Assembly (NCBI RefSeq): GCF_045037415.1
Contig: NZ_CP173438.1
Strand: one strand, 5' to 3'
DNA length: 64,000 bases
From: Escherichia coli
GTDB lineage: Bacteria; Pseudomonadota; Gammaproteobacteria; Enterobacterales; Enterobacteriaceae
Positions within the stretch are counted from its first letter, which is position 1. Each line of letters opens with the position of its first letter. Of the stretch, positions 57,401 to 63,400 are shown piece after piece. Made by a program: the position numbers.

Positions 57401-60400
57401 CGTCATCTTACGGCTACGGATGTATTGGCCTAATGAATGACCGGTTTCTTTTTTAAACATCCGTTGCAGGTGCCATTTGGAGTAACCCGAACGCTCTGAC
57501 ACTTTCTCCAGTGACAGTGGCGATTCCAGGTTGTCCTCGATCCAGTCCAAAATGCTATGAATGGTAATAGCGTCAGTATTGCGTCTGGACATCGTCATAC
57601 CTCTTTTTTCGTTTACGGCAGGACTTTCTTAAGCAAATGCTCAAGTGTTGCCACTTCGTCCGCCGTCAGGTTTTTTGTTAATTCTTGATGCAGGTCCTGG
57701 CCAACTAATTGATGGCATTGTTCACATATTGCCGCGCCGCTGGTGGTAAGTTTTACCAGTACGCCGCGCTTATCATTCGGGTTCGGCAACCTTTCCACCC
57801 AGCCTTTACAGACCAGGCGATCCAGCATACGGGTCAGTGCCCCCAGGTCGACCGACAACACTTTTTTCAGTTCAACCGGAGTAATACACGCCGCGCAGCG
57901 GATAGAGCAGAGCACCTTAAACTGTGCCGCGGTAATATCCAGCGGAGACAGATACTCGTTAAGCAGGCGATCTTTCTTCTGATTAACCATATGGATTAAA
58001 CGACCCAATGGAATAATTTCATTGAACAGATCGCTGGTACTTTTCACATTAGTTGCCCTGGCAAGTAATTAGTTGCAGGGGATAATATTGCCCAGGCAAG
58101 TATAAGTCAAATGAATGAATTGACCGATGCCACGTTTTGCTAAATCGGTTCAAGTTTTGGTCAATGCGATGCAAGGTTAGCTAAAGAGTGACACTTTATC
58201 CTTGTTTACCCCTTATACTTTTCGCTGATAAACCAGATACACAGGATAACAACCACCAATGTTAGATTTGTTTAAAGCAATAGGCCTGGGGCTGGTGGTG
58301 TTACTGCCGTTAGCTAACCCATTAACAACTGTCGCGTTATTTCTTGGCCTGGCAGGCAACATGAACAGTGCCGAACGTAATCGTCAGTCGTTGATGGCCT
58401 CGGTGTACGTATTTGCCATCATGATGGTGGCGTATTACGCCGGGCAACTGGTGATGGATACATTTGGCATTTCGATTCCCGGTCTGCGAATTGCAGGCGG
58501 TTTGATCGTCGCGTTTATCGGTTTTCGGATGCTCTTTCCGCAACAGAAAGCGATTGATTCACCGGAAGTGAAAAGCAAGTCGGAAGAGCTGGAAGATGAA
58601 CCCAGTGCCAATATTGCTTTTGTACCACTGGCAATGCCAAGTACCGCCGGTCCGGGAACCATTGCGATGATTATTAGCTCGGCCTCCACAGTGCGTCAGA
58701 GTTCAACCTTCGCTGATTGGGTACTGATGGTTGCGCCGCCGCTGATCTTTTTCCTGGTGGCGGTTATTTTGTGGGGAAGTCTACGCAGCTCTGGCGCAAT
58801 TATGCGGCTGGTGGGCAAGGGTGGTATTGAAGCGATCTCCCGTCTGATGGGATTCCTGCTGGTATGTATGGGCGTGCAGTTTATTATTAACGGCATCCTG
58901 GAAATCATTAAAACGTATCATTAAAAAAGGCCCGAATGGGCCTTTCAACTATTGCGTCTGTTCTTCGAGTGTCACTGGCCAGCGGCGAAAAATGATGATT
59001 GACCATATTAACGCAGCAAAAGCAGGCACCGCGCCCACATAACCAATCATCGACATTGACCAGTGCAGACTCACCTGATTACCTACCAACGCACCCGCGC
59101 CGATTCCAATATTAAATATCCCGGAGAATAGCGCCATCGCGACGTCGGTGGCATCTGGTGCCAGCGCCAGCACTTTAACCTGCATACCAAGCCCGATGAT
59201 CATCATCGCGATCCCCCAGAAAATACTCAGCACCCCGAGGTGTATTTCACTGTTCGCCGCAGGTAGCAGCAGTGCCAGGCACACCAGCAATAGCGCAATC
59301 GCTGTACTCACCAACGCAGACGCATACTGATTACCCAGTTTACCGAAAATCACGCTGCCAATAATGCCCGCACCACCGAGTAATAACAGTAATGCCGTGG
59401 CAAAGTTGGCGCTGAATCCCGCAATGTTTTGTACAAAAGGCTCGATATAGCTGTATGCCGTGTAATGGGCGGTGACAACCACCACAGTTAACAAATAAAT
59501 GCTCATCAATGCCGGGCGGCGGAACAATAGCGGGAGGCTTTTCAATGAACCGGAATGCTCACTGGGCAGCAAGGGAAGTAACTTAATCAGGCACAAAAGG
59601 GTAAGAAGCGCCCCGATACCAATCGCGAAGAAGGTCATTCGCCAGCCAAAATACTGCCCCACAATGCGCCCGAGAGGTAAACCTAATACCATTGCCAGTG
59701 CTGTACCGGTGGCAATTAAACTCAATGCCTGTGCTCGCTTCCCGGCCGGAGCCATACGGATCGCCAGAGACGCCGTAATCGACCAGAAAATCGCATGTGC
59801 AAAAGCCACACCAATGCGACTGATCACCAGAACGGTAAAACTCCACGATAAAAACGACAGTACGTGGCTGGCAATAAACACCACAAACAGGCAGATCAGT
59901 AATTTGCGGCGTTCAACCTGGCTGGTCATTAACATAAAAGGCAATGACATTAGCGCCACTACCCATGCATAAATTGTCAACATGATGCCGACCTGAGCGG
60001 TTTGCATGTGAAAACTATGCGCAATGTCAGAGAGCAGGCCAACAGGGACAAATTCGGTGGTATTGAAGATAAAGGCGGCGACTGCCAGCGTAACGACCCG
60101 TAGCCACGCTACTTTGCGGGAAACAGTGTTTGTTGTCATAACAGATTATCGGGTGAGTTGCGAAAAAGTGATGAAATGATCTTAAAACGGTTAATGATGT
60201 GAATACAATGCATTTGTGATCTGGATCGCATTTCCATCTCTCTGACGGTTGTTCTGTCACGCATCAGAGAGTTGTTAACATCACATTTTAATGACGATCA
60301 GGAAGGGGGCCTGTTCTTCTTTTACTTGAGGTGCAATATTACGAACGGGAAAATCATCAGGAAGAGATATGTAATTGCTGATGCTTACTGGCGTAACCAT

Positions 60401-63400
60401 ATTTGCCCCATATAGTCATAAGTCATTGGAACATCACTATATAGAGCATATTAGCCGCATGAACTATCAAAAATAGCTCATTGGTAACCCTGTTTTGCCG
60501 AGTCAGGCGCATCCAGCAGTTGAATAAATGCCTCAAGCGGACGCGTTTTCGCACCACGACGCCAGACCAGCCAGGTTGTTAACCAACGCCATTGCTCAGC
60601 TAACGGCCACGATTCAACCTGGTGATGCCCCGGCATACTTTCCAGCATAGAGCGTGGAATAAGCGCAATGCCTGCTCCTGCGACCACACAGGCCAACATC
60701 CCGTGATAAGACTCCATCTCGTGAATAGTTCCCGGAGCGGCACCGTCAGCATGAAACCAGCTTTCGAAGTGGCGACGATACGAACAATTGGCGCGGAAGG
60801 CATAAATGTTACTGCCATTCACCTGACTGGCACGGGTTACTGGCGCATGTCCTTGTGGCGTGACGATCATCAGTTCCTCGCGGTATACCGGTATCCCGTC
60901 GATGGCAGTATGGTTAATGGGTCCATCAATAAACGCCGCATTCAGTTTTCCCTCCAGCACACCTTCCAGCATAGTGCCGGAAGGGCCGGTGGAAAGTGAA
61001 AACTGAATTTTGGGATAACGACGGTTAAATTCCGCCAGCGTGGCCGGAATGCGCACTGCAGCGGTGCTTTCCAGCGATCCCAGAGAAAATAAACCTTGCG
61101 GCTCATCGCCAGCGACAACGCTCCGCGCTTCATCCACTAATGCGAGAATTTGTTGGCTATAGCGTAAAAAGTTATGCCCGGCAGGCGAGAGACGTAAACG
61201 CTGATTCTCGCGAATAAACAGATCAACCCCCAGTTCTGTTTCCAGCTGACGTAGACGGGTAGTGAGATTCGACGGCACGCGATGCACTTTTGCTGCAGCC
61301 TGGGTAATGCTGCCAGCTTCGGCAACCGCGTTGAACATCTCCAGTTGGGTCAGATCCATGGCATTCTCGATTCGTGAATAAGTGGCTTAATATTATTCAT
61401 TTTAAAGCAAGAGTAAATCTGCGTATCTTCATACCATGACTCATAAAGGAGATACCCCGATGACCATTACTCCGGCAACTCATGCAATTTCGATAAATCC
61501 TGCCACCGGTGAACAACTTTCTGTGCTGCCGTGGGCTGGTGTTGACGATATCGAAAACGCACTTCAGCTGGCGGCAGCAGGCTTTCGCGACTGGCGCGAG
61601 ACAAATATAGATTATCGTGCTGAAAAACTGCGTGATATCGGTAAGGCTCTGCGCGCCCGTAGCGAAGAAATGGCGCAAATGATCACCCGTGAAATGGGCA
61701 AACCAATCAACCAGGCGCGCGCTGAAGTGGCGAAATCGGCGAATTTGTGTGACTGGTATGCAGAACATGGTCCGGCAATGCTGAAGGCAGAACCTACGCT
61801 GGTGGAAAATCAGCAGGCGGTTATTGAGTATCGACCGTTGGGGACGATTCTGGCGATTATGCCGTGGAATTTTCCGTTATGGCAGGTGATGCGTGGCGCT
61901 GTTCCCATCATTCTTGCTGGTAACGGCTACTTACTTAAACATGCGCCGAATGTGATGGGCTGTGCACAGCTCGTTGCCCAGGTGTTTAAAGATGCGGGTA
62001 TCCCACAAGGCGTATATGGCTGGCTGAATGCCGACAACGACGGTGTCAGTCAGATGATTAAAGATTCGCGCATTGCTGCTGTCACAGTGACCGGAAGTGT
62101 TCGTGCTGGAGCGGCTATTGGCGCACAGGCTGGAGCGGCACTGAAAAAATGCGTACTGGAACTGGGTGGTTCGGATCCGTTTATTGTGCTTAACGATGCC
62201 GATCTGGAACTGGCGGTGAAAGCGGCGGTAGCCGGACGTTATCAGAATACCGGACAGGTTTGTGCAGCGGCAAAACGCTTTATCATCGAAGAGGGAATTG
62301 CTTCGGCATTTACCGAACGTTTTGTGGCAGCTGCGGCAGCCTTGAAAATGGGCGATCCCCGTGATGAAGACAACGCTCTCGGACCAATGGCTCGTTTTGA
62401 TTTACGTGATGAGCTGCATCATCAGGTGGAAAAAACACTGGCGCAGGGTGCGCGTTTGTTACTGGGCGGGGAAAAGATGGCTGGGGCAGGTAACTACTAT
62501 CCGCCAACGGTTCTGGCGAATGTTACCCCAGAAATGACCGCGTTTCGGGAAGAAATGTTTGGCCCCGTTGCGGCAATCACCATTGCGAAAGATGCAGAAC
62601 ATGCGCTGGAACTGGCTAATGATAGTGAGTTCGGCCTTTCAGCGACCATTTTCACCACCGACGAAACACAGGCCAGACAGATGGCGGCACGTCTGGAATG
62701 CGGTGGGGTGTTTATCAATGGTTATTGTGCCAGCGATGCGCGAGTCGCCTTTGGTGGCGTGAAGAAGAGTGGCTTTGGTCGTGAGCTTTCCCATTTCGGC
62801 TTACACGAATTCTGTAATATCCAGACGGTGTGGAAAGACCGGGTCTGACGCTATATATTCAGCTCTGATATACTCGCAGGTCTTTTCAGACCTGCGGTCC
62901 AGGAGTAGAAAGTGGCAGTCGCCATGGATAATGCAATTTTAGAAAACATCTTGCGGCAAGTGCGGCCGCTCATTGGTCAGGGTAAAGTCGCGGATTATAT
63001 TCCGGCGCTGGCTACGGTAGACGGTTCCCGATTGGGGATTGCTATCTGTACCGTTGACGGACAGCTTTTTCAGGCCGGAGACGCGCAAGAACGTTTTTCC
63101 ATTCAGTCTATTTCCAAAGTGCTGAGTCTCGTTGTCGCCATGCGTCATTACTCCGAAGAGGAAATCTGGCAACGCGTCGGCAAAGATCCGTCTGGATCAC
63201 CATTCAATTCTTTAGTGCAACTGGAAATGGAGCAGGGTATTCCGCGTAATCCGTTTATTAATGCCGGTGCGCTGGTGGTCTGCGATATGTTGCAAGGGCG
63301 ATTAAGCGCACCTCGGCAACGTATGCTGGAAGTCGTGCGCGGCTTAAGTGGTGTGTCTGATATTTCCTACGATACGGTGGTAGCGCGTTCCGAATTTGAA

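Follow-up and report, generated by a model that had tools for sequence, protein, structure and literature searches.

A lineage-wide yneK pseudogene scar between ydeA and ptrR in ST131-like and ST117 Escherichia coli

A Truncated yneK in the ydeA-ptrR Spacer

What became of the yneK gene in those Escherichia coli genomes in which its two neighbors nearly adjoin? In E. coli K-12 MG1655, the stop of ptrR (yneJ) and the start of ydeA (sotB) are separated by 1342 bp that hold yneK (b1527; 1116 bp, 371 aa), whereas in the window studied here, a stretch of 64,000 nucleotides from E. coli contig NZ_CP173438.1, only 338 bp (60140-60477) remain between the two genes. The initial annotation of the window had claimed both the 338-bp gap, which the open reading frame (ORF) calls bear out, and a K-12 gene for a protein of about 370 aa at this locus, and the comparison that it had set beforehand, namely whether K-12 carries the same short spacer, gave the 1342 bp cited above. 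Its description of yneK as absent is correct in that no functional yneK is left, the net deletion relative to K-12 being 1004 bp; it does not describe the locus fully, as both ends of the gene persist and RefSeq has a partial pseudogene there. We conclude that the spacer very probably bears the scar of an old deletion of about 1 kb in a yneK allele of the type found in strain N96 and contig L005, which occurred independently of insertion sequences (IS) and was then inherited or spread in the lineages resembling sequence type 131 (ST131) and in ST117.

The 338-bp spacer is a yneK pseudogene scar, in which the gene is truncated rather than cleanly missing. By blastn and base-by-base comparison, it consists of two flanks that are collinear with K-12 at 95-96% identity, with a 1004-bp gap located wholly within yneK; the junction was fixed by anchored comparison to within a few nucleotides, whereas MAFFT misplaced the large gap. 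About 112 nt of yneK are kept, comprising 85 nt of the 5' end, an 8-nt island, and 19 nt of the 3' end. The segments, all on the minus strand, are arranged from ptrR to ydeA as follows. The ptrR-yneK spacer (60401-60477), a probable yneK promoter region, is kept with 77 nt, a length equal to that in K-12. The 5' remnant (60316-60400) comprises the first 85 nt of the gene from the native ATG (60398-60400) onward, and its translation, YneK residues 1-28, is identical to the K-12 protein sequence. The junction filler (60307-60315) is composed of AACAGGCC at 60308-60315 and one C at 60307. The 3' remnant (60288-60306) contains the last 19 nt of the gene, CCTTCCTGATCGTCATTAA, with the original TAA stop at 60288-60290, and is of the N96/L005 allele type. 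The yneK-ydeA intergenic region (60140-60287) is also kept, with 148 nt as against 149 in K-12 by right-anchored comparisons; the 100 nt adjoining the ydeA ATG are identical to K-12. This region presumably holds the ydeA promoter and 5' untranslated region, and a weak sigma-70-like site, a consensus match alone, is present on its minus strand (60203..60176).

The coding capacity that is left is far below the approximately 371 codons of a functional yneK, the longest remaining ORF having 39 codons. This residual ORF (60281-60400, minus strand), with the translation MVTPVSISNYISLPDDFPVRNIAPQVKE followed by EQAPFLIVIKM, begins at the native yneK start, is out of frame with the old C-terminus, terminates at a TGA (60281-60283), and falls under the 40-aa threshold of our ORF listing. 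The remnant is nevertheless recognizable as YneK: the 34-aa translation of 60299-60400 (minus strand) matches positions 1-29 of 371 in the NCBIfam profile NF033404 with 48.4 bits (cut-off 40; E = 6e-13). It lies between the same neighbors as yneK in K-12, in genomes with the N96-type allele, and on E. albertii-like contigs. RefSeq already lists the scar as a pseudogene, and its biology is ordinary. The partial yneK pseudogene assigned by the NCBI Prokaryotic Genome Annotation Pipeline (PGAP) in SK1144, GPEC1042, and EC958 corresponds to 60299-60400 of the window, and the RefSeq/PGAP entry 'putative protein YneK' (EC958_RS29205 in EC958 and DAECLI1_RS11965 in SK1144) has the same sequence as the scar; however, it states only 'incomplete, missing C-terminus' and does not include the 3' remnant, the island, the type of the progenitor allele, or the lineage distribution. 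The intact K-12 yneK (b1527, NF033404) has the same locus, synteny, and protein sequence over the first 28 codons as the scar, but it is a complete 371-aa ORF and belongs to an allele class other than that of the N96-type progenitor.

Loss of an Ancestral Gene and the Progenitor Allele

The polarity of the change is from a complete to a truncated gene. The yneK gene is ancestral and the scar represents a loss, since an ortholog with 68% aa identity is located in the same glsB-sad-ptrR-yneK-ydeA-marC synteny on E. albertii-like contigs and since yneK is under purifying selection, with a ratio of nonsynonymous to synonymous divergence (dN/dS) of 0.14-0.17 (0.01-0.05 for ydeA and for most ptrR comparisons). 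The opposite explanation, by which the short spacer would be an ancestral empty site and yneK an insertion in the K-12-type lineages, has the narrow distribution of the protein in its favor: YneK is a taxonomically restricted orphan that belongs to no Pfam family and forms just 22 protein clusters among 5.8 billion sequences, and such genes are often acquired recently. All of the clusters with a source name come from E. coli, Shigella, or E. albertii, in agreement with published data (PMC12757027). However, an empty site would not be expected to keep the yneK start with 85 nt of coding sequence as well as the stop with the preceding 16 nt, the yneK flanks are without mobile-element features, and the E. 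albertii-like ortholog has identical synteny, so that we consider this explanation extremely improbable. An assembly or collapse artefact can be dismissed outright, as the same sequence is found in more than 1000 independently finished genomes.

The type of allele that suffered the deletion is indicated by the ydeA side of the junction, where about 75 nt differ from K-12 by approximately 25%, followed by 100 nt identical to K-12. The 3' remnant together with these adjacent 75 nt is a near-exact match to the rare N96/L005 yneK allele, and the 19-nt remnant is matched exactly in L005, N96, 2013C-4282, and 2017-02-2CC. These sequence matches place the deletion on an N96-type yneK allele, and the local divergence of about 25% from K-12 is thus accounted for by descent of the scar from a divergent allele. 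A mutational cluster left by error-prone repair, which had been considered as the source of this divergence (over about 65 nt), was dropped in view of the near-exact match. The rare class, represented by protein P0004 from contig L005, has 84% aa identity to K-12 YneK and is intact in 19 of the 5426 complete E. coli genomes, among them N96, 2013C-4282, and 2017-02-2CC; the intact genes are located at 179-1294 in L005 and at 3078-4193 in contigs L009, L010, and L011. Synonymous divergence (dS) between the two yneK classes is 0.58, and that of the adjacent ydeA is 0.21.

Two further observations concern the carriers of the rare class. A class found intact in 19 of the 5426 genomes is the progenitor of a scar found in 1115 of them, and the ydeA genes of its carriers are about 4.7% diverged from the K-12, ST131, ST117, and 98198 alleles. 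The 2017-02-2CC locus (L011, ~4200-4260) combines an N96-type yneK with K-12-like sequence in the loop and the 3' flank of the palindrome described below, and therefore has a recombination breakpoint at most a few tens of nucleotides away from the yneK stop.

Distribution of the Deletion among E. coli Genomes

Positions 40001-64000 of the window are 100% identical to EC958, JJ1886, and many further ST131 genomes. ST131 and UM146 belong to phylogroup B2, and phylogroup G is the sister group of B2. Using a 200-bp probe centered on the junction (at least 80% coverage), we identified the deletion in 1115 of the 5426 complete genomes, about one fifth of the total; among the matches listed, only the 5' half of the probe matches in non-carriers. 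At the same minimal coverage, 4263 genomes contain the part of K-12 yneK that the deletion removed, and the two classes of genomes together comprise 5378 of the 5426. A 1338-bp query retrieved 1043 records at 99% identity or more. Among the matches listed for this query, every genome at 99.5-100% identity has a single-piece match and carries the deletion, and the best yneK-intact record reaches only 96.4%.

In a further set, made up of 76 genomes largely of poultry origin, the junction is identical and the ptrR background diverged. This set includes APEC O2-211, the scar allele of which is 100% identical to that of GPEC1042. APEC O2-211 belongs to ST117 (PMC6256689), and ST117 belongs to phylogroup G (PMC12351747). 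Our assignment of this set to phylogroup G follows from the sequence type of APEC O2-211, because the serotype O78:H4 alone is ambiguous: it was dropped as an ST117 marker, being shared with ST23 of phylogroup C.

The compound junction has a single origin, because it is identical in all 1115 genomes and on two flank backgrounds. On the ST131-like and ST117 backgrounds, the deletion is an allele of whole lineages, and the proposal in the initial annotation that it is one of several strain-specific indels does not hold for a junction shared so widely. A search of the literature on yneK and phylogroup found nothing about B2. The scar is of little importance in itself and opens no new biological question; as a stable genomic marker common to ST131-like and ST117 genomes, it is usable as a junction polymerase chain reaction or k-mer marker.

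Anatomy of the Junction and a Model of the Deletion

The junction in the window reads GTAAAAGAAG-AACAGGCC-C-CCTTCCTGATCGTCATTAA, and the N96-type allele reads ...AGTAACGAAGAACTACTGGACAACAGGCCTCGTTCCCCTGTGAGG...GCCAGACCTTCCTGATCGTCATTAA near the yneK 3' end. The junction bears no IS copy, no IS end, and no target-site duplication and contains only yneK-derived sequence and one additional nucleotide. The 8-mer AACAGGCC occurs once in each of the K-12, 98198, and L005 spacers, in the same orientation and 56 nt upstream of the sequence corresponding to the 3' remnant, and it is found at the same place in three other N96-type sequences. Thus, the copy at 60308-60315 probably represents an island of yneK (nt 1042-1049) that was kept, with evidence that we consider moderate for a match of only 8 nt, and such an island suggests at least two deletion events. 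The proposed sub-deletions are flanked in the N96-type allele by direct repeats of GAAG (4 nt), AAC (3 nt), and CCT (3 nt); these repeats are short, and blunt single-step deletions fit equally well.

On this basis, we propose the following course of events. The ancestor of the ST131-like lineages (taken as B2) and the ST117 lineage (G) would have had the usual glsB-sad-ptrR-yneK-ydeA-marC arrangement with an N96/L005-type yneK, from which about 1 kb was lost by illegitimate, IS-independent deletion, most likely in two or more steps. The first step would have removed about 956 nt, either as 945 nt between the GAAG repeats followed by 11 nt between the AAC repeats or in one blunt event. The second step would have removed a net 47 nt, either as 6 nt plus 41 nt between the CCT repeats or as one 47-nt deletion accompanied by one substitution. 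The 956 and 47 nt sum to the 1003 nt observed, if one assumes a 1-nt indel at another place in the spacer. The deletion left the flanking genes and the ydeA upstream region untouched, and the scar allele would then have been inherited, or spread by homologous recombination, through the carrier lineages.

Several points weigh against parts of this reading. The multi-step model depends on an island of 8 nt and microhomologies of 3-4 nt, and the probability that the filler 8-mer recurs by chance within a 1.3-kb spacer is about 0.1-0.2 (an estimate rather than a computed value). No intermediate allele was found among the complete genomes. The 5' remnant of the ST117 scar allele is N96-like, whereas that of the ST131-type allele is K-12-like at three yneK single-nucleotide polymorphisms, and the model therefore requires one or more additional events of recombination or gene conversion. 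In addition, phylogroups other than those of ST131 and ST117 were assigned from flank identity and strain names.

A rival explanation is one complex deletion, produced for example by end-joining or template switching with 9 nt of filler, in place of successive small deletions. Such an event would agree with the shortness of the filler and with the single junction shared by all 1115 carriers, among which no intermediate is seen. However, AACAGGCC is collinear with yneK, in the same orientation, and located between both breakpoints, as expected of a retained island, and each proposed sub-deletion has its own flanking repeat in the N96-type allele; we therefore regard the single complex event as possible but rather doubtful. 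The remaining candidate mechanism involves the 8-bp-stem inverted repeat that the initial annotation had noted in the spacer and suggested as a mark of the junction. The repeat exists, with perfect 8-bp arms at 60238-60245 and 60264-60271, and a causal role, for example in hairpin-stimulated slippage, might be supposed because no local secondary structure is stronger (its RNA fold surpasses all 200 shuffles, z = -3.8) and the junction is less than 40 nt away. Nevertheless, both arms lie outside the deleted interval and on the same side of it, 36 nt from the junction (60307-60316), and the repeat is intact at the same position in yneK-intact genomes (K-12, 98198, N96-type) and on E. albertii-like contigs. 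A perfect repeat of at least 8 bp was the best one in 17% of 1000 shuffles of the spacer, so that an 8-bp repeat alone is not unusual, and a k-mer search around the junction detected no second copy of an arm at the other breakpoint. The suggestion that the inverted repeat caused or marks the deletion is thus not borne out, and we consider it very unlikely. Successive small deletions in an N96-type yneK remain our preferred explanation of the junction.

The Inverted Repeat Upstream of ydeA

The inverted repeat (60238-60271, minus strand; arms CTCTCTGA and TCAGAGAG, 18-nt loop) starts 17 nt past the old yneK stop, inside the retained intergenic region. On the yneK-sense RNA, the stem extends to 10 bp (60238-60247 with 60262-60271) with one U.G pair. 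Nine of the ten stem pairs (TCTCTGACG with CGTCAGAGA, 14 nt apart) are kept in all seven distinct sequences compared, which represent E. coli (K-12, 98198, N96-type, and deletion alleles) and the E. albertii-like contigs, whereas the loop varies. The deletion alleles alone have a C-to-T change in one arm, which converts a C-G pair to U.G on the yneK-sense RNA. In the analysis of stem covariation, 93% of cells are paired, eight of the ten pairs are invariant, and none is altered on both sides. The invariant arms with a variable loop are compatible with a hairpin as well as with a palindromic site for protein binding. A reading of the repeat as a rho-independent terminator was dropped: a terminator scan of 60100-60520 gave no candidate, and the loop of 14-18 nt is followed by the tail GATGGAAATGCG, which contains no T-run. 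No match to Rfam was found in 60000-60600 at E <= 1.

As judged from its sequence conservation, the inverted repeat forms a conserved element, either at the 3' end of yneK or in the region upstream of ydeA, that is unrelated to the deletion, and it may be an RNA hairpin or a palindromic operator. The yneK-ydeA intergenic region (60140-60287) has a mean column identity of 87% between E. coli and the E. albertii-like contigs, with a ydeA dS of about 1.0. Because this conservation is far above that of neutral sites, it suggests a dense regulatory region upstream of ydeA, of which the palindrome TCTCTGACG-N14-CGTCAGAGA would be a part.

Other yneK Losses, YneK Function and Possible Consequences

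Inactivation of yneK has also occurred in other E. coli genomes. We identified an IS1-associated deletion in 23CRST050 (L013, 2288-3130) and an IS903B-associated deletion in BHD6 (L014, 1721-2944), each with the respective transposase gene at the junction, as well as an IS1 insertion in yneK of BUCT2930 and a frameshift in yneK of 98198 (L003, 1471-2585). As in the scar, yneK is lost in these cases while ptrR and ydeA are kept; however, these inactivations are recent, show an IS or point lesion, and are each limited to one genome, whereas the scar is compound, has no IS, and characterizes whole lineages. The repeated independent loss indicates that yneK is dispensable and decays repeatedly and, together with the two deeply diverged classes, is informative on the turnover of a fast-evolving orphan gene.

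Searches with the YneK protein gave few leads to its function: the comparison with Pfam yielded only a sub-threshold match to DUF1140, that with PADLOC nothing meaningful, and a sequence profile search of the PDB no matches. AlphaFold2, run with an alignment of 10 sequences, gave a poor model (mean predicted local distance difference test score 49.6). YneK has been treated as an uncharacterised accessory gene, with an association with adherence by Scoary (PMC11540155). This association may follow lineage, and the lineage-wide scar accounts for the accessory status that pan-genome association studies give to yneK, an uncharacterised orphan restricted to Escherichia.

Two in vitro observations concern the ptrR-yneK spacer of K-12, where genomic SELEX (systematic evolution of ligands by exponential enrichment) peaks were reported in this interval for NtrC (PMC8743547) and for the RpoH holoenzyme (PMC5493296). 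In the scar, this spacer is retained together with the native start codon and is located about 260 bp upstream of the ydeA ATG, as compared with about 1.26 kb before the deletion. By analogy, the scar might not be inert, in that carriers could produce the 39-aa peptide, or read-through responding to nitrogen or stress could extend into ydeA/sotB. We regard this as improbable; if true, ydeA expression would have been rewired in a lineage-specific manner in lineages of extraintestinal pathogens.

Flanking Genes and Other Differences in the Segment

Both genes that flank the scar are intact, at full length and with scores far over the NCBIfam equivalog cut-offs, and are annotated in SK1144 and EC958. 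The downstream neighbor ydeA (sotB) (58949-60139, minus strand; 396 aa) encodes an L-arabinose/sugar efflux transporter of the major facilitator superfamily (MFS) and matches NF002921 over its full length with 666 bits. The upstream neighbor ptrR (yneJ) (60478-61359, minus strand; 293 aa) encodes the LysR-type putrescine utilization regulator and matches NF047711 with 490.6 bits. For sad (61436-62848), the longest ORF starts at 61436 (470 aa), whereas RefSeq and NCBIfam place the start at 61460 (462 aa); the NCBIfam model aligns from residue 9 of the longest ORF, and the difference concerns only the choice of start codon.

Differences from K-12 around the Qin prophage and ydeIJ, which had been noted for the same segment, are consistent with the EC958 annotation. 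At 44697-47141, rspB is directly followed by an intact ydfJ (MHS family MFS transporter). In K-12, the two genes are separated by the Qin prophage, and this ST131 segment apparently has no prophage at the rspB-ydfJ site. Between dcp and dgcZ (52854-53062), two tiny EC958 partial pseudogenes, apparently a further deletion scar and the counterpart of the ydeIJ difference noted initially, represent fragments of a 2-oxo-tetronate isomerase and of a YdeI-family protein; like the yneK scar, these ydeI/ydeJ-side remnants are partial pseudogenes where K-12 has whole genes.

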